This document shows, piece by piece, positions 2,076 through 62,531 of a stretch of DNA of 64,000 nt. This DNA is from Octopus vulgaris (lineage: Eukaryota). Position numbers and translations under genes: made by a program. Numbering within the stretch: position 1 is the first letter of the stretch; the number at the start of each line of letters is the position of its first letter. The notes under the pieces were generated by a model, which saw only the letters and a list, made by a program, of their open reading frames with translations, did no database searches and was not told where the DNA came from. The stretch covers positions 6,262,001 to 6,326,000 of the forward strand of contig OX597821.1 in assembly GCA_951406725.2 (NCBI GenBank), read 5' to 3'.

Positions 2076-2761
2076 CCTGCAATGTCGGTCACGATGACAA
2101 GAAAGAAGAAAAATAATGAAAAAATATGAAAGAAGATGCAATAACAAATAACAGCATTAAGCCATTAAATATCTTTCCGTAACTAGCAAAAGAAACAACA
2201 TTAACAACATAATTGACAAGCAACAATCCCTCAAAACCATCAAAACAGTCCCCTGACATTATGTTCATGGAAAAAAAACCAAAAAATTCCGGTTTAACAG
2301 AAGCATCAGTTTTAAAAAAAATCGAAGGACAAATCTAGAGAAGTCATGTTTGAACAACAACAAAAGATGTTATGGTCACGCTTGGAATGCCTTTCGTTAT
2401 AAGTCTACTTCTTCCTTGATGTGGTTTGACCCGAGTTTAAACAACTGCAACATTAATTAAAAAAAAAAAAAGCGAATATTAATAATAACAATAATGACAG
2501 CAACAACATTATTAATTATTACTAATTAATTAATTAATTAATTAATTAATTAAAGTAGGAGCAGCAACAACAACAAAGTCACATGCTTGAAACTAACAAA
2601 ACGATATTATTATTAATATCATAAAGATGTTGTACTAATTATTAACCATGACTGTAATGAGAAGAAATAATTATTGTTTTAAAAACAATAACATTGTTAT
2701 TATAATTAAGAGAAACAACAACAATAACAACAACTACGGCAACGAACTAACAAGGGAGTAT

Positions 2762-4300
2762 TTATATGGTCATTTGTCTAGCTAGAAATAGCAGCCAAAT
2801 CTTCAGCTGGCACCCTCCACTGCCTTAAAAAATGGAACGGCACATTGGATAATATTATCCTTAGATAACCATATTAACATTTATATTATTATTATTATTA
2901 TTAGCATCAACACTATCAAATTAAATATTAACAGAATCAGCATTATTTGGAGCTAAAATATCTGAAACTGTTGCAAAGAGGAAGCTTTTACATGGTCACT
3001 TCACTTTGCTGGAAATAGCAGTCACATTGCCCTTAAATCACACTTTACTACCTTGAAAAATATCTCAGACAGGTGTTTCTTAACCCTTTTTTTCCTGTCA
3101 TCCCACTCCCTTACCTGTTCACTGACCTGATTCTACTTATGATAGGTAAAAAGTAAAATTTATATACGACACAATTTATTATTATATAACATCAACAGCT
3201 TTATATAAGTCACAAAAACATAATATTAACGACGTTATAATTAATTTTCCATCAATTAACATCCTTAAAATCAACATTAAGGAAAATGAATTTAACAAAA
3301 ATGGAGTAAAAAATGAAAATGAATTTGTTTTTTAAACTTAAAAACAGTTTCTTCGCTGGAAGAATTTTCCCAGGAATCCAAAAATGAAAGCAGTTTTGTG
3401 GATATGACTGGAAGGAATTTTTCTTTTTCTTTTCATTAAAGGTCTGTCTGGTTTGCTCAATTTGAGACGACCTAGGGCTAAACAACAGCAACAATTGGAA
3501 CATAATTCATTAAATTATCAACATTATCAACATTATGATGTAAAAACAGCATTATTAAGAATGGAGATATTGTAAGAAAAACAACACAGACAAACAATAA
3601 ATTTAAGAACTATATCATTCATTAAATCGAATTGCAATGATGATGATGATGATATTATGATGCCAAACAACATTAACAAGAAGAAGAACAACATTATTGA
3701 CAAAAACATCATTATAAGGAAGAAGAAAAAAGAAGAAAATTTGCAAAGAACAGCTTCAATAAAAACAAGGAGCATTCTAAAAAAATGAAAACCTCATAAA
3801 CAACATCGACAACAATATTATATTATCCAGAAAACTGTAAAAAAAAATCAACATTAACAAGGTCAGAGGAATTCCTGTATATAGGCCTTTGACCTGCTAG
3901 AGATAGCAGCCAAATTACTTTCAAATTAGATTTTGTTATTCCAAGAACAGAAGGACGCATAGAATAATGTAGAATTGGATGCACTATATCCATAATAAAC
4001 AAGTAAGCAAACAATGATAAAACTGGAATATCTTTGATCCAAGGTTTACTCAACCAGTGATAACTTGGGGAAATAATTGACGATGTTATTAGCTCAGAAG
4101 TAGATGTAGCAGCAATGTGAACAACATTATTATTATTGTTGTTGTTGTTATTATTATTATTATTTATTGGCAGCAAAAATTATCAACTAAACTCCCAACA
4201 TTGACCACAGCCGCCTCTACATGGTCTCTTGGTCTGCTAGAAATAACAGCTAAATCTCCCTCAAATCACACATCACCACCTTTCAATGAAGAATAATAAA
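2762..4300 (+). repeat. Cluster of an old ~100-170-bp interspersed repeat
   Basis: Motif tacatggtcacttg.cctgctagaaatagcagccaaat..ctcaaatcacac recurs at ~555, 2762, 2988, 3880, 4218 and 35710. Confidence 0.6.
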
Positions 4301-4604
4301 CACCCTTTATAGTAGTAATAGTAATAGTAGAAATAGCAGTTGTAGAAGTAGTAGTAGTTGAGGTGGGTGGTAGTAGTTGTAGTGGTGGTGGTAGTAATAG
4401 TAGTAGTAGTAGTAGTTGTAATAGTATCAGAAGTAATAGTTGTAGTGGTGGTGGTGGTGATAGTCGTGGTAATATCAGTAGTAACAGTAGTGGTGGTGGT
4501 GGTGGTGGTGGTGGTGGTCGTAGTAGTAAGTTCTAGAAGATTAGGTGAAGGGGGGAATGAAACGACAACAACAACAACAACAGCAAAAACCATAGCTTTA
4601 ACAG

Positions 4605-4943
4605 CAGCAACAGCAACAAGAACAACAGGTTACTGCGATGACAACAACAGGAACGTGCACGGTGGAGGTGGTGGTGGCGACAGCGGCGGCCGAGGCATCG
4701 AAGATGGGGATGACGAAAGAGGAGAGACGTATCGAAGCCGATCATCTGTTTACGACACCTTCAACACCACCGACTACACCTACGACACCGCCAACAACAC
4801 CACCGACACCACCATCAACAACAACAACAGCAACAATCCTCACCACCACTACTACTGCCATTACATCAACAGCAACAATACTCTCGGTGCCAATTTCAGC
4901 ATCGACAGCAACTGCAGCTACACTGAGAAAAGGAAATCCATAG
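4605..4943 (+). CDS. Candidate Thr/Pro-rich coding exon (unverified)
   Basis: CpG-rich open frame after a possible acceptor ctttaacag. NCN codons vary at the third position (TTPSTPPTTPTTPP). No recognisable domain; could be a decayed trinucleotide repeat. Confidence 0.22.
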   Translation, partial: QQQQQEQQVTAMTTTGTCTVEVVVATAAAEASKMGMTKEERRIEADHLFTTPSTPPTTPTTPPTTPPTPPSTTTTATILTTTTTAITSTATILSVPISASTATAATLRKGNP

Positions 4944-4965
4944 AATGATAAAATATATATTAAAT

Positions 4966-5640
4966 TCTTCCATAGGAAACACACACAGTCTTGGATATCA
5001 TCATGGAATGTGAAGCAGTGGCATCTATGCCCTTCTCAAGGACATTATTGTCATGTGTAAATGAAACAAAATGTTAATAATTGAATTGAAAATATCAAAA
5101 GACCTAATGGGATTTTCTTGAAGGTGTCATTATAAAAAAAAAAACTAAAAGTTAAAAATATATAAATATATAAATAAAAGGAAAAGGGAGCCAGTGAAAG
5201 GAACCCTTAAAAAATGTTTGAAACACTTTCTCATATCTGAAAATCTTCGGAAAACTCTATAAGCAGTTAAAGAATCTCTTTAAAGCTTAAGAAATTCTTC
5301 CATAGGAATCACATGCAACTTTGGATCATTATAAAGTGGAGTGTGAAACAGAAGGTTCTGGGGTTTATGCCCCTTTCAAGGACATTAGTGTCATTCATAA
5401 ATGAAATAAAATAATGACTATTGTGTTGGATTGAATTGAAAACATCAAAGGAGATAATGGGATTTTCTTCAATGTAAAAAAAAAAAAAACACACAAAAGG
5501 GGGACTGCACCCTTAAAACTGCATTCAAACACTTTATTATTGCTGAAAAGTTAAAAACTCTAGGAGGTTATGGAATTTCTTTGAAGCCAATGTAATAAGA
5601 ATTATAAAATGTGACTTTGAGATACTTAAACCCTTAAAAT
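4966..5640. repeat. Diverged ~330-bp tandem duplication
   Basis: tcttccataggaa at 4966 and 5296. caaggacatta.tgtcat, ttgaattgaaaa.atcaaa and taatgggattttctt each occur in both units. Confidence 0.75.
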
Positions 5641-6817
5641 ACCTCTTTTGAGCTTTCCTAAAATCATTTAAAAATCCATAAGGAAAAATTTGTGACACCC
5701 TTTTATAAAACAAAGAACAAAATGCAATTATAGATTTTGTGATTATAGAATTAGGAAAAAAAGATATAATTAAAGAAATTCTTTAAGAAACATCCCCTTT
5801 CCAAACCTTCTGAAAATATCTGAATAAACCTTAAAAAAAATTCTGTGAAAATATCTGAAAAACTTTTTACAAATCATGAAGGATATGTTAAAATGATTGC
5901 AAAAACTCCTGAATATATGCTAAAGAAAATAACTGTAAAAAAAAAGAAGATCCCTTTAAATTCAGAAATGTGTTAAAAACCTTGGAAAAAAAAACTGTCT
6001 AGAAATCTAGAAAAGAAACTCCCTACTGAAAAAAAAACAAAAAACAAGCAAAAACTTCCTTCTTTAAAAATTATTGCAGAAAGGAGTACCTTTCAAATCA
6101 ATTTAAATACTTTCTATAAATTTAATAAATCACTTTTAAATTTACCAAAAAAATCTCACAAGTAATCTAAAAAAACAAAACTGAGTAAAACTCCTTACAA
6201 TCTTTTTGTAAAAAAACTCATAAACCTTCTGAAAAAACATTCCACAAACTCATCAAAAACTTTTCCGATAAACTCATTATAAAAATATAAAAAAAAAGGA
6301 CTTCCTTTTATACAAATCTATTAAAAATTCCCTAGTGAAAAATTCCTTTAAGAACATACTGTAAAACTCCCTAAAAACTTGTTGCAAAAATAAATAAATA
6401 AACAAAATAATCAAAGTCCCTATAACTTTCTTCCCCATCCATATAAAAAAAAAAATGTATTAATGTAGTGAGAAAAACTCCCTTGAAAAATTCCCTACAA
6501 ACCCAGCATGAAAAACTCCCTAGTTCTGAACTCCCTTGTCCGAGTATAGTCTTCTTAATACAGTCTGTGAATATTCATAAACAGGATAACTTGAGATGAC
6601 GAGAGAGAAAAGGAGGGATCTGTGAGTACCTTCGGAGACCCTCACCAAAACCACATTGCAGGTAGGGGTCTGCTGTTGTTGTTGTTGAAGTTATTGTTAA
6701 AAGTATTGTTGTTGTTGTTGTTCCATGAATGAAACACATTTTTACAATTCAGGCCCATGGGGGCCATACTACAGCAGCTTGAAATAATAGATAAATATGT
6801 ATGTGAGTAAATATTCC

Positions 6818-7564: not shown

Positions 7565-9050
7565 AAGGTGGTGAGCTGGCAGAATTGTTGGCACACTGGG
7601 CAAAATGCTTAGCAGTATTTTGCCTGTTACTACGTTCTGAGTTCAAATTCCACCAAGGTTGACTTTACCTTTCGTCCTTTTGGGGTCGATAAAATAAGTA
7701 CCAGTTCAACACAGGAGTCAATGAAATTGACTTATACCCTTCCCCAAAATTGCTGCCCTTGTGGCAAAAATTTGAAACCATTATTATTATCATTATTATC
7801 ATCATCATCATCATTATTATTATATGTTTGACTTTTGCTTTGTATTTGTACAAGTTGACCCTAAGTCTCACCCAGAGACCTCAAGGGACAAGTTAGAAGT
7901 TCAAGTCGGTATTATGCCTATGGTGTCATATATTTGGTTTTGCATTTATTATTATTATTAGTATTATTATTACTGTTGTTGTTGTTGTTGTTGAGCTGGC
8001 AGAATTGTTAGCACGCTGAGTAAAATGTTTAGCAGTATTACATCTGCTGCTTCATTCTGAGATCAAATTCCCCTGAGGTTGATTTTGCCTTTCATCCTTC
8101 CAGGAGTGATAAATCAAGTAAGTACCAGTGAAATACTGAGGTCAATGTAATTGGCTAGTTTCCTCCCTCAAAATTTCAGGTCTTGTGCCTATAGTAGAAA
8201 GGATTATTATTATTATTAAGGCAGTGAGCTGGCAGAATCATTAGCACGCCAGGCACTTGTCTGTCTTCATGTCCTGAGTTCAAATTCTGCCCCGGTTGAC
8301 TTTGCCTTTCATCCTTTCGGGGTCGATAAATTAAGTACCAATGAAACACTGGGGCTCGATACAATTGACTTACTCCTCCCCCAAAATTGCTGGCCTTGTA
8401 CCAAAATGTGAAACCATTATTATTATTACTATTACTCGTAAAGTGGCGAGCTGGCAGAATCATTAGCACGCTGGACGGAATGCTTAGTGGTATTTCGCCT
8501 GTCTTTACATTCTGAGTTCAAATTCCACCTAGGTCGACTTTGCCTTTCATCCTTTCGGGGTCAATAAATTAAGTACCAGTTGCGTACTGGGGTCATTTTA
8601 ATTGACTGGTCCCCTCCCCTTAAGTTTCAGTCCTTGTGCCTATAGTAGAAAGGATTATTATTATTACCTGTATTATTATTATTACAGGCAGTGAGTTGGT
8701 AGAATCGTTAGTGTGTCAAACAAAATGCCTAATAGGCATTTCTTGTGTTTCTTTAGGGTCTGAGTTCAAATTCCACCAAGGAGTTGATAAAATAAGTACC
8801 AGTTGAACATTGAGGTCAATGAATTTGGCAAACACCCTTCCCTCAAAACTGTTGGCCTCGTACAAAAATTTGAAACCATTTTGAAGGGCAGTGGATTAGC
8901 AGGATTGTTAGAATATCAGAAAAAGTGCCTTGAGGCATTTTGTCTGCTTCTTTACATTCCAAGTTCAAATCACACCAAGATCTACTATGCTTTTCATTCT
9001 TTTGGGGGGTCAATAAAATAAAGTATCTGTCAAGTACTGGGTCCAATGGC
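7565..9050 (+). mobile_element. Head-to-tail cluster of six SINE family B copies
   Basis: Unit aaggcggcgagctggcagaat..gagttcaaattc..gtcgactttgcctttcatcctttcggggtcgataaa..aagtaccag starts near 7565, 7990, 8218, 8440, 8686 and 8885, mostly separated by (ATT)n tails. The central segment resembles the Meta domain of MetaSINEs. Confidence 0.82.
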
Positions 9051-9149
9051 TTCAATGAACCTCTCTGCTTTTCCCTAAATTAGAAAACTGTTAATAAAAG
9101 ACAGCAGTCTGGTAGAATCATAAAAGCATCAACTTTGCCCAACCCATTC

Positions 9150-9785
9150 TTATTCTAGGAGCCATTCTCTTAGAGCATCTTCCTTCACTGCTGACTTGGT
9201 CACCTTAGTAAGAGAAGCTATCTACTACTTCTAAGTATCCCACTGGACATTTGAAGAATTCTATTTTCTGTACAGTTCTGTTGTTTAATGTACCCCCACA
9301 TCTGCCACACACAAAGTCCTTCTTTGTTAACCTTTCTCTGATATAGTTGCACCTCTTATGTGTCCAAAGCTTGCACTGGGTACACCTTATGAGGTTTCTA
9401 CCTACACCTTTTCTACATATTGAGCCGAGCCATTTCTATGAAAGGATTTGTGATTTGTCTGTTTTCCTATTTACTAGGTCTTTGCTAAATTAACTCTAAG
9501 GCCCTTTGATTCCTGACCTTGGTTCCACACCTGAAACTTCTTTAGTTCTGGTAGTGATTCAGCTGTATGAACAAGGTTATCAGCAGAGAGGAACACCCAA
9601 CAGTGGCCAGTCTTAAATTCTTATGTTATTGGCCTAGAGGACTATGATGAACAAGAGGGAGCTGAGAATCGATCCTTGGTGAATTCCTACCAGTACACTG
9701 AATTCATTGCTATACTGATTGCCAACCTTCACCCAACTGACAGCATTGTTGTACATTGCTTGTACAGCCCTCATCAACCACTCAT
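9150..9785 (-). pseudogene. Older degraded copy of the same RTE RT
   Basis: EWLMRAVQAMY..VKVGNQYSNEFSVLVGIHQGSILSSLLFIIVL, then SADNLV..AESL..GLRVNLAK. 9345-9430 matches 38403-38490. Confidence 0.85.
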
Positions 9786-10913
9786 CCCTAGCTTCTGCAT
9801 TGACCCCCAGACTGATAGATAGACAAACAGACAGACAGAAAGTATCAAATGACACCATGCAATATGGTGCTGAATTTGACATACATTATACTTTTATATA
9901 ATTATACTTTTACTTTTATACTTTTATTTGTTTCAGTTATTTGACTGTGGCCATGCTAGAGCACTGTCTTTAGTCAAGCAAATCAATCCCAGGACTTATT
10001 CTTTGTAAGCCTAGTACCGCTAAGTTACAGGGACGTAAACACTCTAGCATCGGTTGTCAAGCGATGTTGGTGTGTTTACATATATACATACGTATATGTA
10101 CATACTTACATCTATACGTATATATATCAGCATCGCCTTACTGGCACTTGTGCTGGTGGAACGTGTAAAAACATTCGCGCAAGGTTGTTGCCAGTACCTC
10201 CTGATTGGCCCCCGTGCCGGTGGCACGTAAAAGCACCCACTACACTCTCAGAGTGGTTGGCGTTAGGAAGGGCATCCAGGTGTAGAAACTCTGCCAGATC
10301 AAGATTGAAGCCTGGTGCAGCCATCTAGTTCGCCAGCCCTCAGTCAAATTGTCCAACCCATGCTAGCATGGAAAGCGGACATCCGCGACGAGAGTTCTGC
10401 TACTGTCTTCCTTGAAGTGTGGACGGCATTTCTGTTGCTCCTTTGCCGTTCTCAAAAATAGCGTTCGTAATACTTTTTCTCGTTCAGCTTAACAGCCCTT
10501 CTTGTCTTGTTGTTCTCCTTGTCCTGTCTTTTACTGCTTATATTTTGTACTGTCGTTACTGTCCTGTTTTTGTTACCATTTTTACCCCTCTGCAAAAAGA
10601 TCTCAAATTTTATTTAATTTGCTTTTCGCGGGAAGGAATGTATCTATCGAAGATGCGTATCGCCTTCACCTTCGAAACACAGAGTAAATGAAACCAGAAG
10701 AAGGAGAATTTTCCTTGTGTTATTTGTCCTGTACTCTATTTTTTTGTTGTGTAAGAAAAATGTCCAGTTCCTTGGGTTTGTGTTTATATTTTCGTTTCTC
10801 ATTGTGTTTGAGTTTTTTTGGTCTCCTGTACCCATATATGCGTGTATATATACATGTAGAGGTAGGTACGTACATATATGTATGTATATATGCATATGTT
10901 TTATTTATTAATT

Positions 10914-10951
<38 letters not shown>

Positions 10952-10954
10952 ATA

Positions 10955-10989
<35 letters not shown>

Positions 10990-11241
10990 ATGATGATGAT
11001 GTATGTATGTATGTATAAATATATATATGTATTTATGCATATGTGGCCACAGGATGTCACGAAACATGTACAACAAAAAACACGAAGTACCAGTACATAG
11101 AATATGAACCATTATTTCAAATATGTATGTATATATGCATATATATACATATATACATATATATATATGTATATATATTATTTATATTATTTGATTGAAT
11201 GCCATGCATCCTCTTCCAAGTAAGTTTTATCTATCTATCTA

Positions 11242-11277
<36 letters not shown>

Positions 11278-11474
11278 AATTATATATAAACATCTAGGCA
11301 TAGTGTAAAACCGTAAAGAAAAAATTAGTTGTCACTAATTGTGGCTAAGGGTGCCAAAGCACCTATACTGTTAGTTATAAGAGTTAAAATAACTCTTGAT
11401 GATGTAAGGAGAGCACAATATATATACAATGACAAGGCAGTCAACCGCCCCATGAAAGTCTCTAGAATCACCTG

Positions 11475-11518
11475 ACTAGGCCTAGTTTCGCCTATTTCAT
11501 AGTGACATTGTCAGTAGT
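11475..11518 (-). ncRNA. Decayed minimal hammerhead ribozyme
   Basis: ACTA-CTGACAA-TGTC..GGC-GAAA-CTAG-GCC-TAGT (G8 and U16.1 mutated). Confidence 0.6.
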
Positions 11519-11691
11519 GACTGCTCAAATGGTTGATGGTTTGGCCAACATCATTTGCCAATATATTTTTGCAATAAAAATTTATGGCTGACTTAGTGAA
11601 ATGCTAATGTGTATACTAAAAATCAATATAAACATCTAGGAAAAATTAATATAAACATAAAGGAAAAATTTAATCATCACTAATTGTGACT

Positions 11692-12006
11692 GGTGGAGGT
11701 GCAATGGCCCAGTGGTTAGGGCAGTGGACTTGCGGTCGGAGGATCGTGGTTTCGATTCCCAGGCTGGGTGTTGTGTGTGTTTATTGAGCGAAAACACCCA
11801 AAAGCGCCACGAGGCTCTGGCAGGGGGTGGTGGCGACCCCTGTTCTACTCTTTTGCCACAACTTTCTCTCATTCTCTCTTCTTGTTTCTTGAGTAACGCT
11901 GCGATGGACTGGCATCCCATCCAGCTGGGGGGAACACATACACCACAGAAACCGGGAAACGGGGCCCATGAGCCTGGCTAGGCTTGAAAAGGGTGACAGA
12001 AATATA
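11692..12006 (+). mobile_element. tRNA-derived SINE family C
   Basis: Box A tggcccagtggt, box B gtttcgattcc. 10-bp TSD aattgtgact at 11682-11691 and 12007-12016. Confidence 0.88.
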
Positions 12007-12305
12007 AATTGTGACTGAGGGTGCTGAAACACTTACATTGCTGGGAATAAGAGTTTAAAAAACTCTTGATTTTGTAAGGAGAGCACAATACATATAAACT
12101 GACTTTTATTTATAGCAATGTAGGTGCTTTAGCACTCTTAGTCACAATTAGTGATGATTAAATTTTTCCTGTATGGTATTACAGTGCATCTAGCTCTTTA
12201 TATAAAGTTTTAGTATACACATTAGCATTTTGCTAAATTTTTATGGTAAAAATATATATATACTGGCAGATGAGGTTGGCTGAACTATCGACTGCTTGAG
12301 CACTC

Positions 12306-12347
12306 ACTACTGATGATGTCTCTGGAATAGGCAAAATTAGGTCTAGT
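12306..12347 (+). ncRNA. Decayed minimal hammerhead ribozyme
   Basis: ACTA-CTGATGA-TGTC..GGC-AAAA-TTAG-GTC-TAGT (G12 mutated). The consensus with the 11475 copy restores a full core. Confidence 0.62.
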
Positions 12348-12509
12348 CTGCTGATTCTTCAGACAGTCATGGGGTGGTTGACTCCCCTGTCAGTGTATAT
12401 ATATTGTGCTCTTCTGACAGCATTAAGAGTTTTTTTTTTAACTCTTATTTCTAGTAATGTAGGTACTTTGACACCCTTAGTCACAATTAGTGACAACTGA
12501 ATTTTTCTT

Positions 12510-12560
<51 letters not shown>

Positions 12561-12968
12561 CAAAATGGGTGAGCTAACCAAAACCTTGCGAGTGGGGTTG
12601 ATAGAAAGAAACAGATACCTGCTGTATATAATGTGAGAGTGCTTGTGTGTGTGTGTGTGTATGTGTGTGCTTGTGTATAACTATTCTGTCCACTGATAAT
12701 CACAGCTTTCACCACATGTCAATAAAAATGCACTTAATGCAAACATGTTTCTAGAGCATATATATATATTTTTTAATCTGATAAAATTGACACGTACAAA
12801 ATAGCCATCTTGTTTTTCTCACAGTTCATTGAAATTCAGGAAAAAAAGCGAAAGTATTGGTGAAATATGTAAAAACTGCAAGAATATAGCTAATCTGCTT
12901 ACGATTTTATCAATAAGCCTTGTGTTTTTTTTCTATTGACTCAGTTTCTCAATATCTATCTATCTATA

Positions 12969-13023
<55 letters not shown>

Positions 13024-13143
13024 TTGTTTGCATGTTCATCTTCATTTAAATATACAAATATGTGCAAATTCAAACATGCATATTATATATATATATAAAT
13101 AATCAAAATAATCAAAATAAGCAACAAGGATATCCAGAGGTAA

Positions 13144-13230
13144 TGTAGTACGATCGTTTCATGCAACTCCATTTAATTGAACAATGCAATCACTACGTCA
13201 ATTTAAAATGCAGAGCAATCTTCATCTGCA
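13144..13230 (-). ncRNA. Decayed type I hammerhead ribozyme
   Basis: Minus strand: TGCAG-ATGAAGA-TTGC..GCAT-GAAA-CGATC-GTA-CTACA. Palindromic ACGATCGT stem III, C3 mutated. Confidence 0.55.
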
Positions 13231-13374
13231 CAAAAACAAAGAATTTAATTAACACAAGATGGACACATTAGTATAATTATACCTAAAATCTCCAAGAAGT
13301 TAAGGAGATAGACAAAGAACATGTTGTTCTTACTCCAGTATAGAAGTTACTAAGCTTTTCAAGAAGATATACAT

Positions 13375-13575
13375 TATTACATGCAATTTTTTCTTCCTTC
13401 TTCCTTTTCTTTTAGACTTTCCTATGTCTCCTATTTCCGAAGAAGAGCTTTGCTTGAAACATAAAACAACCACTTTTTCATTCCTTCTCTGAGCATCTTA
13501 TTAATACTATGCATGTACCACGTCCTCACGTTGTTGTTTTGTTCTTGTCTTTTTTCTCCGTTTTTTGATTAATTA
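13375..13575 (+). mobile_element. Short non-autonomous element with decayed minimal HHR (13434-13466)
   Basis: TTT-CCGAAGA-A-GAGC-TTT-GCTT-GAAA-CATA-AAA. Homologous to 33307-33505 (shared ctgagc.tct..taa.acta..c.tgt.ccacgtcctc.cgttgttgt). Confidence 0.55.
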
Positions 13576-13592
13576 TTTGTATATATATATAA

Positions 13593-13960
<368 letters not shown>

Positions 13961-14194
13961 ATATATATATATAACACACCTGTGCTGGTATCACATAAAA
14001 AGTACCCATACCAGTGCTGCATAAAGAGCACCTGTGTCAGTGCTATGTAAGTAGCACCCTGTACAACCTGGAAATTGGTTGGCTTTATGAAGGGCATCTA
14101 GCAATAGAAACCATGTCCAAACAGACAACTAGAGCCTAGTGCAGGCCTCGTGGCTTGCCAGCTCCTGTCAAACTGTCCAAGCCATGGATGTTAA

Positions 14195-14283
<89 letters not shown>

Positions 14284-14284
<1 letters not shown>

Positions 14285-14670
14285 GAGGAGCAATGGCCCA
14301 GTGGTTAGGGCAGCAATACTCACAGTCGTGGGATTGTGGTTTCGATTCTCAAACCGGGCGTTGTGAGTGTTTATCGAGCAAAAACATCTAAAGCTCCACA
14401 AGGCTCTCGCAGGGAGTGGTGGCTAACCCTGCTGTACTCTCTCTCTCTCAACAATTTTCTCTCACTCTTTCTTCCTGTTTCTGTTGTACCTGTATTTCAA
14501 AAGGTCAGCCTCATCACACTCTGCGTCATGCTGAATCTCCCTGAGAACTACGTTAAGGGTACACGTGACTGTGGAGTGCTCAGCCACTTGCGCATTAATT
14601 TCACGAGCAGGCTGTTCCGTTGATTGGATCAACTGCAACTCTCGTCGTCATAACCAACAGGGTGCCACGA
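14284..14670 (+). mobile_element. SINE family C, tail type iii
   Basis: Same tRNA head. 3' part matches 32780-32970 and 25050-25200. Confidence 0.82.
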
Positions 14671-15029
14671 TATATGTATGTATATGTATCTATGTATGCA
14701 TGCGTTTTTATATATATATATATAGATGTATGTATGTATCTATCTATATGTGTGTGATGAGTTTATTGTATTCAGTACTCAGCTGCATTAGATCATGTAT
14801 GTATATGTATAATCACTTGAAATATATGTTGATAACAACAAGTTGATCAATAATTTTTCTGCCAGCTGATGAAACCTACTTATTTTATGTACTATAACAA
14901 TGCTCCAAATTTGAGGACCTCTTCGAAAATGGAATGAATACAAAGGACTATACTATCTTCTGATCTCTTTAAATGATATAGTGTCACAAGAGTCTTTGGG
15001 TAGCACATAAACAGAAGAGGACATACCTG

Positions 15030-25439: not shown

Positions 25440-26280
25440 TTCTCATCCAACTTATACTATTCTTAATCCAACTCAGCATATTTTCCTTAATCCAACCCAT
25501 TCTACTTTCTTCAATCCAGCCTGCAGTATTCTCCTTAATCCAACACAAGAAGATCTCTTTAATCTAATTCAACCCTCAGTATTCTTAACCTAACCTATAG
25601 AATTCTTTTTAATCCAACATACAAATTCTCCTTAATCCAATACATCATATCCTCCTTAATCCATCCCACCATATTCTCTTTAATCCAACCCACCACATTC
25701 TTCTTAATCCAACCCACTATATCCTCCTTAATCCACCCTGCCATAGTTTCCTTAACCTAACCCAGCATATCCTCCTAAATCTAACCCACCATATTCTCCT
25801 TAATCCACCCCACCATATTTTCTTTAATCCAACCTACCATATTCTTCTTAATCCACCCACCATATTCTCCTTCATCTAATACACCATATCCTCCAAATCC
25901 AACCCACCATATTCTCCTTGATCCAACCCACTATATCCTCCTTAATCCACCCCACCATATTTTCTTTAATCCAACCTACCATATTCTTCTTAATCCACCC
26001 ACCATATTCTCCTTCATCTAATACACCATATCCTCCTTAATCTAACCCACCATATTATCCTTGATCCAACCCACTATATCCTCCTTAATCCACCCCACCA
26101 TATTTTCTTTAATCCAACCTACCATATTCTTCTTAATCCACCCACCATATTCTCCTTCATCTAATACACCATATCCTCCAAATCCAACCCACCATATTCT
26201 CCTTGATCCAACCCACTATATCCTCCTTAATTCACCCCACCATATTCTCTTTAATTCACCCCACCATCTACTCCTTAACC
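25440..26280. repeat. ~23-24-bp minisatellite with ~142-bp higher-order repeat
   Basis: Monomer aatccaacccaccatattctcctt. A six-monomer block restarts at 25801, 25943 and 26086. Confidence 0.88.
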
Positions 26281-27090
26281 AAACTTACTCTCCCTCCTCT
26301 TCCACCTCCTCCTCTCCTTTTCTCTTTCTCCATCCTTCTTCATCTCCTCTTTTATCCTTCTTAGTCCTCTTTTTTGCCTTTCTTCTTGCTCTTCTTCCTC
26401 CTTCATCTTATCCCCTATTCCTCTCCTTGTTTTCCCCTCTCCCTCTCCCCCGTCTGTCTGTCAATCAATCAGTACCTTCAAGATATTATGTTGGTCAATG
26501 ATTGATGTGTTTAGATTGAGATAATCTCATTCCTTCTCCTCTTTCAGTTCTATTACTAATTCACTAATCACCATCCGATAGGTGTGTATGTCTCTACATA
26601 TTTGGGTGTATGTTTTCTGATGCTTGAGTGTGTGTGTGTGTGTGTTTGTGTGTGTGTATGAATGTATGTGTTGTGTGCATGTGTGTATTTGTATGTATGT
26701 GCTTATGTGTGTATGCATGTGGGCGTGTGTACGTGTGCATGTGTGAGTGTGCGTGCACACGCACATGTGCATATGTGTATATTTGTGTATTTATGTATGT
26801 GTTTATGTATATCTTTTGTCAGTGCTTTGATATATAAATACATATAAGTATAGATATGTGTATATATATATATATATATATAAACACACACAGACATACA
26901 TATATGTATGTATAGAAACACATTGATATTTGTTTGGGTAGGTTTCAGAAGTAATTCAATACTGTATGTTAACACCGATCCTTCTCTAATTCCCTTTTAC
27001 CTTTTTATATATTCATTAATATACAAATTTTGTTTGGGTGTGGGGCAGGTAAGCAGGGCACACGTGCATGTGTCTGTGAGTGCATGTGCA

Positions 27091-37193: not shown

Positions 37194-38627
37194 CATCATC
37201 ATCATCATCATCATCATCGTTTAACGTCCGTTCTCCATGCTAGCATGGGTTGGACGGTTCGACCGGGGATCTAGGAAGCCAGAAGGCTGCACCAGGCTCC
37301 AGTCTTATCTGGCAATGTTTCTACAGCTGGATGCCCTTCCTAACGCCAACCACTCCGTGAGTGTAGTGGGTGCTTTTTACGTGCCACCTGCACAGGTGCC
37401 AGGCGAGGCTGGCAACGGCCACAGTAGGATTGGTGTATTTTATGTGCCACCGGCACAGAAACCAGTCGAGGCGGCGCTGGCATCGGCCACGAGTCAGATA
37501 GTGCTTTTTACGTACCACCAGACCAGGGATCCTGGCTGGTTCAATTCGATTTCGATTTCGCTTGCCCCAACATGTCTTCGCAAGCAAAGGGGGTTGGCAT
37601 GAGTGCCTGTCATCGGATGAGGTTCTATATCGACTTCACTTGCCTCAACAGGTCTTTGTGTCCAAGGGAGGAAAGGCATGCATAAGTGGGCTGGGCTCAC
37701 TTGTCCTGCCGGGTCTTCTCACGTACAGCATATTTCCAAAAGTCTTGGTCGCTGGTCATTTCCTCAGTGAGGCCTAAAGTTCGAAGGTCGTGCTTCACCA
37801 CCTCGTCCCAGGTTTTCCTGGGTCTACCTCTTCCACGGGTTCCCTCAACTGTTAGGGATTGGCACTTTCTCACACACCTATCTTCATCCATTCTCGCCAC
37901 ATGACCATACCAGCGCAATCGTCTCTCTTGCACACCACAACTGATGCTTCTTAGGTACAACTTTTCTCTCAAGGTACTAACGCTCTGTCGAGTATGTACA
38001 CTGACATTACACATCCATCAGAGCATACTGGCTTCATTCCTCACGAGCTTACGCATGTCCTCAGCAGTCACGGCCCATGTTTCACTGCCATGTAGCATGG
38101 CTGTTCGTACACATACATCATACAGTCTGCCTTTTACTCTGAGCGAGAGGCCTTTAGTCACCAGCAGAGGTAAGAGCTCCCTAAACTTTGCCCAGGCTAT
38201 TCTTATTCTAGCAGTTACACTTTCAGTGCACCCACCCCCACTACTGACTTGGTCACCTAGATAACGGAAGCTATCAACTACTTCTAGTTTTTCCCCCTGG
38301 AAAGTGACGGAAGTTGTTTTCTGCAGATTTTCGGAGGTTAATGCTCCCGAGCATCTGCCACATACAAAAACTATCTTCCCAGTTAGCCTACCTTTGACAT
38401 TGCTGCACCTCTTATGTGTCCATAGCTTACACTGGGTACATCTTATAGAGTTTCTACCTACACCTTTTCTACAGATCGAGCAGGGCCATCTTCCTGAAGA
38501 CATTTGTGGATTGTCTACCTTCCTACTTATTAGTACTTTGGTTTTAGCTAGGTTGACTCTAAGGCCCCTCGATTCTAAACTCTCCTTCCACATCTGGAAC
38601 TTCTCCTCCAGTTCTGATAGTGACTCA
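37194..38627 (-). mobile_element. 5'-truncated RTE-clade LINE (RT C-terminal half, 3' UTR, (GAT)n tail)
   Basis: ORFs 38018..38719 and 37697..38014 are in frame across one TGA: GLRVNLAKTKVL, VDSFRYLG, RIRIAWAKF, MLHGSETW, RRLRWYGHVARM, RGRGRPRKTW. 3' UTR 37194-37696 ends in (GAT)n. Possible TSD gaaat (37189-37193 / 38628-38632). Confidence 0.93.
37697..38627 (-). pseudogene. RTE reverse transcriptase fragment with PHD-like insert and one premature stop
   Basis: CSIC-x10-CTQC-x4-H-x2-C-x14-CGRC lies between the KTK and FRYLG motifs. Stop at 38018-38020 is probably CGA>TGA. Confidence 0.88.
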
Positions 38628-38714
38628 GAAATAAATAAAATAATGATGAATGCACACGTGCTTGTGCATGATGGACAAAATGAACAACAACAACAACAAC
38701 AACAATGTACTATA

Positions 38715-39076
38715 AACAAGAGTACTCAGAGAGTGCAAACCTCCACCAAGGCACCTTAACATCCTCTTAATGATTAGCTGGAGATGATTTTTAAAACAAG
38801 AATATCTGAAATAAACTTGACTGCTCTCACAAATGAAAATACTAAAAATGAACCCAACTGCTCTCAAAAATTAAGCAAAAAAACTGGAAAAATAATCCAG
38901 AATCCTTGTCTGGTACCAGATTGATCCCAAAATCTAATCAGTTCTTGCTAGTCATGAGGCCAAACATCCATGAAAATTTCATCCGAATCCATCCAGTGGT
39001 TCTTGAGATATCTTGTCCATGGACAAACAAACAAACAAGCAAAAAAATACCCCTGCCTTCGCTAAGGTGGAGGTAA
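38715..39076 (-). mobile_element. DINE-1/HINE-like (Helentron-associated) non-autonomous element
   Basis: Subterminal inverted repeats acctccacc (38739) / ggtggaggt (39066), short terminal hairpin actc-aga-gagt, aacaagag end, internal (ACAA)n. Same layout as Drosophila DINE-1. Confidence 0.65.
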
Positions 39077-41331: not shown

Positions 41332-42739
41332 CTCTAAAGGATGTGTGTCCCAGCTTCATTTCATAAATGCCATTGTTCAGTAAGCAGCTGTTTAACAATA
41401 CTGAACTCTTAGACCACACCCATACAAAACCTCACCCTATGGCTGAGGAAAATGTGAATAAGTACTCACCAAGACTGAATCAAAATCTATCTGAATTAAA
41501 ATACTATCTAATCAGGATTGACCTGGAGCTAAGCAACAACAAAAATAATGAGATAAACAACAATAGCAATAGAAGTATCTTAAGGCTAACATTTTACAAA
41601 ATTTATAAAAAAGATGCTGTTTAAAAATCATGCTTAAGATCTTTCATGAACAAGAAAAACCACTTCAAATTTAAACCTAAAATAAAGAGAAATTTCAACA
41701 AAAATCAGTTAAAATGATAGCATGTTTTTGGTGTTTGTTAAGTAATGAAATACCTGGGTAAATAGAAAAACAGAGCAGGTGTTTCCAAGTTACTTGGTGA
41801 CCTCGCAAGTGTCATGAAAAAAAGCATCCTGTACACACTAAAATGTGACTGGCATTAGGGAGGGTATCCAGCTATAGAAATGATGCCAGGGCCAACATTG
41901 GAGCTTGATGCAACTCTGTGGCTTGTCAGATCCTGTCAAACTGTAACCCATGCTAGCATGGAAAATGACTGTTAAATGATAACAATGATGATGACGGCGA
42001 CGGTGACGACTGCAATGATGATGATGATGATAAATATGAGGATGATGATGATGATGATGATAATGGTGATGATAATTTAATGACAATGTATATTTAATGA
42101 TATATATATATATATACCATCATTAAAGCAGGGAGCTGGCACAAAAAAGTTAGTACGCCAGGCGAAATGCTTAGTGGTATTTTGTCTGTCTTTACATTCT
42201 GAGTACAAATTCCGCAAAGGTTGACTTTACCTTTCATCTTTTCAGGGTTGATAAATTAAGTACCAGTTGTGTGCCCAAAGTTTCGGGCCTTGTGCCTAGA
42301 GTAGAAAAGGATATATACCATCATCATCATCATCATCATCATCATCATTGTTTTTATGTCTGTTGCAGTCTAATGACTGAAATGACTAACGACTAAAAGG
42401 TAAAAAATAAAAATAATAAAAGAAGCATAAAACATTTTGTACTATAAAAGGCTGAATCAAGAACAAGTGAGATGATTAGACCTGTTTCGTCGTAATAGCA
42501 TGGGTTGAGCAAATTGGTGTCAGTAGCAGATGGTGGTGGTTGTGAAAGCATGTGTTACAATGCAGAACTTACTATTGTGGCTTAAGTATAAATGTGCACA
42601 TCTTTATACAGATTCTGTATATAATACAACTTAAACCTGACTTAATCTTTGTTTCAGAGTATGTGTTATTAGATTTCAAAAACAAATCATGTCCACATTA
42701 TATTAGGATAGTTTAAGAATAGAATTATAATCTAGAAAA

Positions 42740-60683: not shown

Positions 60684-60777
60684 AAAACGGTAAGATAACA
60701 AAAGAAAGAAAGAGACCTCAATATTATGTAAATAGAGGAAATTTATCTATACAATATGTTACATTACTCGGTAGTCA

Positions 60778-60840
60778 AGATAAAACTCTGAGTTTCAGAT
60801 GCCGAAGTGGAAATCCACAACACCATCTCTTCGGTTATCT
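60778..60840 (-). ncRNA. Type I hammerhead ribozyme, inverted pseudo-LTR copy
   Basis: Reverse complement of 62416-62478. Confidence 0.72.
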
Positions 60841-61231
60841 GGCTATTTGAAAACGTTATGAAAAAATACCGTTAAAAATGAAGGAAATTACTCTGTTATA
60901 ACTCTGCTTTGCCTGCGTACTTATACATCGCTCGCATTTTTCGTCATAAAAATTATATAAAAATACATAAAAATATATAAAAATATATAAAAATATATAA
61001 AATCTTCTTGGGACATAACACAGAAAGCATGTTCTATCCGTTTTCTTTAGGGGACCAAAAACGTAACAGAAATTTAGTCACATGTGGGCATGATCCGAAA
61101 AGTTCTGTCCTTGTATTTAGACATGTGGTAGGGTCTAAGCTGCTTTTCCAGATAAGCCATCTCTCCATGTCGCATAAACCGCACCTTCCGCTGCCGTTAG
61201 TATAGGGCTTACATCTTACACTTCGGACTGT

Positions 61232-62221
61232 ATAACTATAGACACTAACCTGACGGTTGTCAATTTCTTAGACGTTTCCTTAGATCTTAATAATAATATT
61301 TATAAGCCTTATAGGAAGCCCAATGATAGACTAAGTTATATTAATGTAGGTTCATGCCATCCCCCTATATTATTCAAAAATTTAGTTAAAAATATTAGTA
61401 AGAGGATTTCTAGCCTCTCATCTAATGAGGACATCTTCAATAGCGTTGCCCCAGTTTATAATAAAGCTTTAAAAGATAGTGGTTTTAGCGAAAAAATAAA
61501 ATATACACCTATCACCAGCCCAACAATAAGGAAAAGGAATAATAGAAATAGGAAGGTCATCTGGTTTACGCCCCCTTACTCACCCGAGGTGGCCTTCAAT
61601 ATAGGTAAATATTTCCTAGCACTGATAGATAGACATTTTCCAGTTAACCATGCTTATAGGAAACTCTTCAATAGACACAATTTAAAAATTAGTTTTAGTT
61701 CAACTACCAATTTTAAAAACATAATCAATCATAACATACAAAAAACACAAGAAGAAAACAGCTGTTCATGCAGGAATAAAGAATTGTGCCCGCTAAATGG
61801 AGCTTGCATGTCCAAGACCATCATATATGAAGCTACCGTAAACTCTATAACCACTAAAGACACCGTTTTGACGAAGAAATACGTGGGCCTGACAGAGGGT
61901 AATTTCAAGGCCAGGTTCAATAACCACACTTTGAGCTTTAGGCACTGGAACAAAAGAAAAGCGACACAATTATCCAATCATATTTGGTCTTTAAGAGATA
62001 AAGGTGTCGATTATAACATACAATGGAAGATTTTGGCCAGATGTAAGCCCTATACTAACGGCAGCGGAAGGTGCGGTTTATGCGACATGGAGAGATGGCT
62101 TATCTGGAAAAGCAGCTTAGACCCTACCACATGTCTAAATACAAGGACAGAACTTTTCGGATCATGCCCACATGTGACTAAATTTCTGTTACGTTTTTGG
62201 TCCCCTAAAGAAAACGGATAG
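61232..62221 (+). CDS. PLE ORF fragment: end of RT core/thumb, Cys-rich linker and GIY-YIG endonuclease (5'-truncated, frame open to stop)
   Basis: Frame is open upstream of the listed ORF 61589: ITIDTNLTVVNFLDVSLDL..YKPYRKPND..YINVGSCHPP (PLE RT thumb), then IWFTPPYS, CSCRNKELCPLNGAC, IIYEATV..KYVGLTEGNFKARFNNH (GIY-YIG), LSNHIW, CGLC..ER, LNTRTEL..CPH. Confidence 0.92.
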   Translation: MTIDTNLTVVNFLDVSLDLNNNIYKPYRKPNDRLSYINVGSCHPPILFKNLVKNISKRISSLSSNEDIFNSVAPVYNKALKDSGFSEKIKYTPITSPTIRKRNNRNRKVIWFTPPYSPEVAFNIGKYFLALIDRHFPVNHAYRKLFNRHNLKISFSSTTNFKNIINHNIQKTQEENSCSCRNKELCPLNGACMSKTIIYEATVNSITTKDTVLTKKYVGLTEGNFKARFNNHTLSFRHWNKRKATQLSNHIWSLRDKGVDYNIQWKILARCKPYTNGSGRCGLCDMERWLIWKSSLDPTTCLNTRTELFGSCPHVTKFLLRFWSPKENG

Positions 62222-62415
62222 AACATGCTTTCTGTGTTATGTCCCAAGAAGATTTTATATATTTTTATATATTTTTATATATTTTTATGTATTTTTATAT
62301 AATTTTTATGACGAAAAATGCGAGCGATGTATAAGTACGCAGGCAAAGCAGAGTTATAACAGAGTAATTTCCCTTCATTTTTAACGGTATTTTTTCATAA
62401 CGTTTTCAAATAGCC

Positions 62416-62478
62416 AGATAACCGAAGAGATGGTGTTGTGGATTTCCACTTCGGCATCTGAAACTCAGAGTTTTATCT
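62416..62478 (+). ncRNA. Type I hammerhead ribozyme (variant core) in PLE pseudo-LTR
   Basis: AGATAA-CCGAAGA-GATG..CATC-T-GAAA-CTCAGAG-TT-TTATCT: stem I agataa/ttatct, CCGAAGA core (U4C), stem II, quasi-palindromic stem III, GUU site. One extra U before G12. Confidence 0.72.
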
Positions 62479-62531
62479 TGACTACCGAGTAATGTAACAT
62501 ATTGTATAGATATATATATATATATATATAT

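Follow-up and report, generated by a model that had tools for sequence, protein, structure and literature searches.

What moved a non-coding, hammerhead-bearing repeat into this position, and from what kind of RNA was it copied? For animal retrozymes in general, both the mover and the template (a circle or a linear multimer) have been proposed and not demonstrated (PMC7229834; 10.64898/2026.07.22.740005). The reading to which we incline, with somewhat more confidence than doubt, is that the locus is a decayed, two-armed copy of a non-coding 340-bp hammerhead repeat, a non-autonomous element that would derive from the pseudo-LTR of a Penelope-like element (PLE) and would have been mobilised in trans by PLE enzymes. 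Elements of this kind are known from many animals. No function is likely for the locus itself.

Anatomy of the insertion

The element lies at about 11278-12510 of the window (the whole 64-kb stretch of DNA analysed here) and is bounded by (CT)n(TA)n and (CA)n(TA)n tracts. Its two arms run outward from about 12102; in the hammerhead sense they stand head-to-head with their 3′ ends pointing out, and the unit contains a small palindrome, at whose 3′ half the right arm begins at the junction (12100-12103). The right arm (12102-12510, + strand) holds about 1.2 units, one of 339 bp and some 70 bp more, and its outer end passes into (CA)n(TA)n. The left arm (− strand) amounts to about 1.45 units, a 345-bp unit and some 155 bp, when a 314-bp insert and its 11-bp duplication are left out. 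Specifically, its 3′ portion (11278-11692; nhmmer matches at 11691-11316 and 11326-11278) contains the full unit and the 3′ repeat and ends outward in (TA)n, and its 5′ portion (12018-12103) is the end of a truncated upstream unit. Compared with the right arm, the left is about 50 nt longer on the 5′ side and about 40 nt longer on the 3′ side, where a “tail” (11278-11315, − strand) continues in unit register past the point at which the right arm stops. The unit thus has a period of 345 bp in one arm and 339 bp in the other, with a GC content of 33–34%, and its longest stop-free stretch is 66 codons over 12 frames in both arms. These values bear out the non-coding unit of about 345 bp in inverted arrangement that a first-pass annotation of this DNA had described. 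That annotation had also counted about 1.2 units in reverse orientation, which stands, and 1.3 in the first stretch, which should be about 1.45; it recognised the partial tandem plus inversion and missed the insert that splits the left arm.

The insert (11693-12006, + strand) is read as a SINE because it has an A-box-like head and because seven more partial copies, at 71–87% identity, lie in the window (at 14282, 23002, 32973, 44443, 44779, 45550 and 54516). ARAGORN found no tRNA gene in it, and strict B-box patterns were also unmatched. Its 11-bp target-site duplication (11682-11692 and 12007-12017) is clean, and presence or absence of the SINE across species could be used to date the element. 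The two arms differ at 62 of 361 aligned sites (83% identity, Jukes-Cantor 0.195), and the insertion is therefore old. Neither blastn nor nhmmer found further copies of the unit in the 64-kb window, the other nhmmer matches having E values of 2.4 or worse. An Rfam match to MIR4416 at 12008-12150 (32.8 bits, the gathering score being 70) was set aside, since it merely reflects the inverted junction. That junction is bridged, with one difference, by one contig of run X1, which may be from the source sample; run X3 has no contigs over 12075-12091, and this single X1 contig is therefore its support. An X3 contig under another organism label covers 12141-12508 with three differences and three gaps.

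This anatomy is that of an endonuclease-bearing (EN+) PLE insertion. In the clades compared (Penelope/Poseidon, Neptune, Naiad and Hydra), such elements are marked by a partial tandem, an inverted 5′-truncated copy, a tail of 30–40 bp at one end and a (TA)n target with no discernible target duplication (Craig et al. 2021, PMC8557442; Arkhipova et al. 2013, PMC3846280). The locus has the inverted 5′-truncated arm, a one-sided tail of about 40 nt and a microsatellite target, and the earlier suggestion of a PLE-style partial-tandem plus inverted insertion is well founded on its arms, its one-sided tail and its (TA)n ends. Unlike EN+ PLEs, it has no reverse transcriptase or GIY-YIG domain, no reading frame joining the two is linked to the unit at the locus, and its hammerhead differs from the Hydra-type motif of Hydra-1_oBim.

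The window also holds a young, 5′-truncated PLE of its own, at 60700-62530, that resembles the Hydra clade. Its frame at 61178-62221 has 33 longer homologs at 39–47% identity, a weak GIY-YIG match (E 0.04, below Pfam’s cut-off) and the CxCX5C linker described for that clade. Its inverted pseudo-LTR arms are nearly identical, the left one alone has a tail, of about 70 nt, and each end of the element is marked by (TA)n. This coding PLE has the layout of the locus and serves as an internal control for machinery and layout, and not as a partner of the locus. A Hydra-type hammerhead-like motif, read by eye and not detected by our type I descriptor, lies at about 62413-62471 (+ strand) with its mirror at about 60792-60849 (− strand); it has a one-base palindromic loop III (compare Hydra-1_oBim) and C for U at core position 4. 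We considered this PLE as the donor of the unit and rejected it, as the DNA similarity is at most marginal: the local scores are 42 and 46, and of 200 simple shuffles 5 and 2, respectively, score as high.

It is also worth considering that the inverted and tandem arrangement arose without RNA steps. A single insertion could later have undergone inverted duplication by DNA repair (a palindrome fold-back), the tandem part being satellite-like. The start of the right arm at half of a small palindrome is what such an event would leave, and a later fold-back would also yield the grouping of repeat copies by position that is described below. We nonetheless regard this as very improbable: the arm ends lie about 40 nt apart, no flank is duplicated and both ends abut microsatellite, the left arm reaches beyond the right on the 5′ side as well, and the layout equals that of the PLE at 60.7–62.5 kb.

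Two decayed hammerhead motifs

Each arm carries one hammerhead relic of type I. In order, the motif comprises a 4-bp helix I, the seven-base core, an extra U, a helix II opening with G10.1-C11.1, GAAA, helix III (two pairs round a three-base loop) and GUC. The right-arm relic (12306-12347, + strand) has CTGATGA, the extra U, a 6-bp helix II, a minimal helix III, GTC and a 4-bp helix I, and its putative cut site would fall after 12343; it reads AAAA for GAAA, with loss of G12, and T for C15.2. The left-arm relic (11475-11518, − strand), also of PLE type, has lost G8 (CTGACAA) and U16.1 (GCC) and keeps G12 intact. The motifs were searched for with our own type I hammerhead descriptor, counting core mismatches, and dinucleotide shuffles of each unit served as controls. 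The right motif is found at one core mismatch, a limit within which 1 of 400 shuffled right units also matches; the left motif is found at two, within which 9 of 400 shuffled left units match. The hammerhead motifs of both arms exceed chance, and the earlier report of two copies broken at different core positions is confirmed at the same coordinates. Over the 64-kb window, the descriptor has no match at zero mismatches and two at one mismatch, namely the right-arm motif and 41439-41507, the latter a loose match that is probably due to chance. A strict core pattern has two matches in the window against 8.65 expected, neither inside the element, and the Rfam hammerhead family is absent among 53 matches at 9000-15000 with E values up to 5. 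Motif scans of metagenome and viral contigs, collections not expected to hold animal repeats, returned no stretches.

The pattern of the damage is informative. At core positions 7-8 the left copy has CA and the right TG, and at positions 11.1-12 the right has CA and the left CG. Since both patterns are those that CG deamination produces and the window is CpG-depleted (observed/expected 0.37), G8 in the left arm and G12 in the right were likely lost by CpG deamination. The mutations had been called complementary; they look like deamination scars and carry no functional meaning. G8 and G12 are the catalytic residues of the hammerhead, and as each motif is missing one of them, both are predicted to be catalytically dead. 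Mutual rescue in trans was rejected by reasoning: in a double hammerhead one strand supplies both CUGANGA and GAAA, each arm here lacks one or the other, and the arms lie on opposite strands.

In type, the motif belongs with those of PLEs. The minimal PLE hammerhead has the consensus NNN CUGANGAH GNNNNN..NNNNNC GAAAN palindrome NUH NNN (PMC4209133, supplement), and its traits are an extra nucleotide, a long helix II, a short helix I, a palindromic helix III and weak, dimer-dependent cleavage (PMC4209133); the layout of the unit’s motif fits both. Animal retrozymes, in contrast, are defined by the canonical type I hammerhead (PMC7229834), which we took to mean a helix I of about 6 bp, a helix II of about 4 bp and no extra nucleotide after position 9; the unit has an extra U, six pairs in helix II and four in proximal helix I. 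Mussel retrozyme hammerheads are also partly atypical, and the non-canonical motif therefore lowers the case for retrozyme membership without excluding it.

Other features can be compared in the same way. Like the metazoan non-LTR retrozymes (Cervera and de la Peña 2020, PMC7229834), the locus presents a low-GC, multicopy, non-coding unit of 150–450 bp that carries a single type I hammerhead, stands in a tandem longer than one unit and is predicted to pair with itself; the GC content lies below the limit of about 45–50% used for that group. Unlike them, it has a minimal PLE hammerhead, one per arm and broken, in an inverted two-arm arrangement with a tail and no visible target duplication. Where retrozymes show at least two tandem units each with a hammerhead, the arms hold 1.45 and 1.2 units with one motif apiece. 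Likewise, the “active” test of Li, Clavereau and Pollet 2026 (10.64898/2026.07.22.740005) looks for two successive complete hammerheads, which the locus does not have. The minimal hammerheads of PLE pseudo-LTRs (Cervera and de la Peña 2014, PMC4209133) include Dwi_HHR2 of Drosophila willistoni, for which up to 85 tandem repeats, each of 450 bp, are given. Unlike those pseudo-LTRs, the locus has no reading frame, its unit is in partial tandem and helix I is predicted to extend into a rod. The element is best called retrozyme-like, that is, a non-coding, multicopy, longer-than-unit hammerhead repeat that would need a helper, and it is at most a candidate member of the retrozymes. Hence the relic of a retrozyme family that was first proposed survives in part: the repeat is multicopy, non-coding, hammerhead-bearing, of retrozyme size and dead, and its hammerhead is of the minimal PLE type and not canonical.

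The PLE type of the hammerhead is also what one would see if the locus were the 3′ end of an autonomous PLE, with its pseudo-LTR tandemly doubled and both arms 5′-truncated beyond the coding sequence. We judge this to be rather unlikely, although several observations speak for it. Minimal hammerheads on opposite strands and 100–700 bp apart have been reported as probable truncated PLEs (PMC4209133), and those at the locus are about 460 bp apart with the SINE excluded; furthermore, axolotl PLEs bear tandem minimal hammerheads (PMC7229834). Against it, a tblastn search with 33 PLE-like proteins gave no match with E of 10 or less starting in 11,000-12,999, and upstream of the unit both arms, and the contigs of other family members, have more unit, unlike the window’s PLE, where an ORF ends there.

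A dispersed family and its predicted fold

The derived, non-autonomous repeat that we favour should be judged together with its relatives. In the family survey, contigs from 4 of 24 listed runs were aligned to 12007-12515 at 80% likeness or more, giving 354 contigs in X1 and 787 in X3, counts that, like summed depth, are not copy numbers. Most are below 95% identity, and the unit is therefore a dispersed multicopy repeat. A single-copy unit, named beforehand as the outcome that would speak against a retrozyme family, is not what these two runs contain. The listed loose ends before 12102 and behind 12507 read on as unit sequence in register (8–39 contigs per row), and for the DNA runs there is no shared non-unit flank among the 24 loose-end rows listed, a listing outside which 433 more rows lie. 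Several joints lead from the 3′ part of the unit to the 5′ copy; with the ends in register, they indicate that other members also exceed one unit, in contigs that are too short to display two hammerheads. Opposite-strand joints at 12106/12437 and 12123/12361 in other contigs suggest further inverted loci.

Variants were compared at 35 rows inside the two-arm alignment, taken from the 40 listed of 109. Among these, the left arm agrees with the family at 18 of the 22 rows with an X3 majority, and both arms have therefore drifted from one family sequence. The hammerhead gains from the family letters in part. C15.2 of the right motif is restored by a C at 12337 in five X3 contigs, and with family letters at 12319, 12322 and 12325 all six pairs of helix II are Watson-Crick, against four of six in the right copy. 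The X3 shares of these three changes are 0.44, 0.35 and 0.62, in which the left arm’s own contig is possibly counted; the left arm lacks the change at 12319, which two X1 and three X3 contigs carry. G12 is another matter, as no G at 12333 appears among the 40 of 109 variant rows listed, each of which reaches a share of about 45% in some run. The “complete consensus” hammerhead of the first-pass annotation was thus the best letter picked from two copies, to which the family contigs add C15.2 and a better helix II and, in those rows, nothing for G12.

Cover over the hammerhead itself (12279-12346) is about one tenth of that of its neighbours (X3 summed depth of 370–470 against 2,400–6,700), and the region 12240-12380 is skipped by many contigs. 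The ribozyme may therefore be missing or strongly diverged in many members of the family. This low cover and the missing G12 both speak against a ribozyme throughout the family: either few members keep the motif, or the motif is too variable to align, or G12 was lost in parallel through CpG decay. The stretch immediately downstream of the hammerhead has about double the cover of the AT-rich part upstream, which would be expected of a stretch present twice per element and is a weak hint in favour of a truncated autonomous PLE. A 30-bp part of the unit within 12432-12465 draws about five times the contig depth of its neighbours and is probably shared with a larger repeat family. From two runs presumed to be RNA came 30 and 6 contigs, respectively; 12262-12346 is covered by none of them, which is neutral on expression.

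The right unit folds below its shuffles (z −3.4, 60 shuffles). A predicted rod (12251-12405, + strand) places the hammerhead at its tip, with 12251-12269 pairing with 12387-12405 through 17 Watson-Crick and two G-U pairs. With family letters at 13 sites, the predicted energy of 12250-12410 falls from −56.3 to −64.1 kcal/mol; 16 of 500 controls with random letters and 1 of 500 with random places get as low. In the consensus fold of the two arms, 1 of 78 pairs has a two-sided change and the hammerhead is missed. Self-pairing was probably stronger in the ancestral unit, as in retrozymes, a modelled trait that is weakly shown.

Template and mobilisation

If the locus were a true non-LTR retrozyme, a monomeric circle of about 345 nt would have been reverse-transcribed beyond one round. 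Size and GC fit such a circle (170–400 nt and low GC, with mussel units of 350–390 bp; PMC7229834), other copies continue in register at both ends, and the predicted rod, which the family letters stabilise further, would keep the cut ends together. The folding signal is uneven, however, for the left unit reaches only z −1.5 and the antisense of the right unit is nearly as stable as its sense strand (z −3.0), and in addition the hammerhead is non-canonical and neither arm has two.

More directly, because the two arms stem from one event, the comparison of their tandem passes is an internal test for a monomer-circle template. Had such a circle been copied for more than one round, the four repeat copies would have been the same at the outset and changed separately thereafter. 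A clean alignment of the four has 69 columns, of which five group the copies by position (5′ versus 3′) and none in either of the other two ways. Two adjacent columns form one CG site, leaving four events, and by our own arithmetic on these the chance of grouping by position is about 0.012 (roughly 1 in 81); a looser alignment with ragged ends gives 6, 0 and 1 of 81 columns. The grouping leans against a monomer circle, short of proof, and toward units that would have diverged beforehand, either in an uncut multi-unit transcript or in a linear element with an imperfect terminal repeat. Two of the four events fall at CpG sites, and arm-to-arm gene conversion within the inverted repeat could mimic the pattern. 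We find the monomeric circle a distinctly improbable template, and the earlier proposal of reverse transcription from one is unsupported. A fixed order of 5′-type and then 3′-type repeat also fits a linear master, as a truncated autonomous PLE would provide. A linear, uncut template is in keeping with PLE biology, since PLE-type motifs cleave weakly and an anole PLE is reported to take unprocessed RNA in vitro and to form its tail through internal initiation at two adjacent sites (PMC11167929).

For the non-autonomous, pseudo-LTR-derived repeat, these observations can be arranged as follows. A donor locus of 1.5 or more units, diverged from one another beforehand, would have been transcribed and its RNA left uncut, because minimal hammerheads of the PLE type cut poorly and mainly as dimers. 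Nicks made by a PLE endonuclease in the two strands of a (TA)n tract would have left two 3′ ends, both of which would have primed cDNA on a linear RNA longer than the unit, from starts about 40 nt apart. What is seen today is the structure that this would leave, two 5′-truncated arms joined head-to-head and one of them with a tail, together with the later arrival of the SINE in the left arm and a drift of the arms to 17% difference. The loss of G8 and G12 can be read directly, with CG dinucleotides as its probable cause, and it leaves the locus predicted to be dead.

That retrozymes are non-autonomous PLE derivatives is a kind of relationship already argued by Li et al. 2026 (10.64898/2026.07.22.740005), whose elements are likewise pseudo-LTR-like hammerhead units without a coding region and with the same proposed origin; their case is built on co-occurrence and phylogeny in 35 species, none of them a mollusc, and ours on insertion anatomy. 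A single old, broken locus cannot settle the template, and young copies could, by the same test. More tentatively, and leaning against it on balance, we raise the possibility of a mollusc family, probably of octopus, intermediate between pseudo-LTR and retrozyme, with a stand-alone tandem, a minimal PLE-type hammerhead on the tip of a long rod and full PLE signatures. Should that hold, its anatomy would be evidence that retrozymes are moved by PLE enzymes, and from linear, uncut RNA of several units and not from circles; intact, expressed donors elsewhere in the genome would give the first retrozyme circles from a cephalopod. Among the papers that our literature searches listed, none treats a cephalopod retrozyme, and supplements or repeat libraries (Repbase, Dfam) may hold one. 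The main text of PMC7229834 contains neither “octopus” nor “cephalop”, and its supplement may list cephalopod examples; short motifs of the unit are absent from the supplement of PMC8557442 and from supplement file 2 of PMC4209133; the main text of the Octopus vulgaris repeat paper (PMC13282606) does not use “hammerhead”, and the giant squid genome paper (PMC6962438) is listed as mentioning it once.

Two other elements of the window can be recorded here. At 37697-38725 (− strand) lies a non-LTR retrotransposon frame that is broken into fragments and matches RVT_1 weakly (E 0.008), and 25462-26282 is a minisatellite with 34 copies of a 24-bp unit and a higher-order period of 285 bp.
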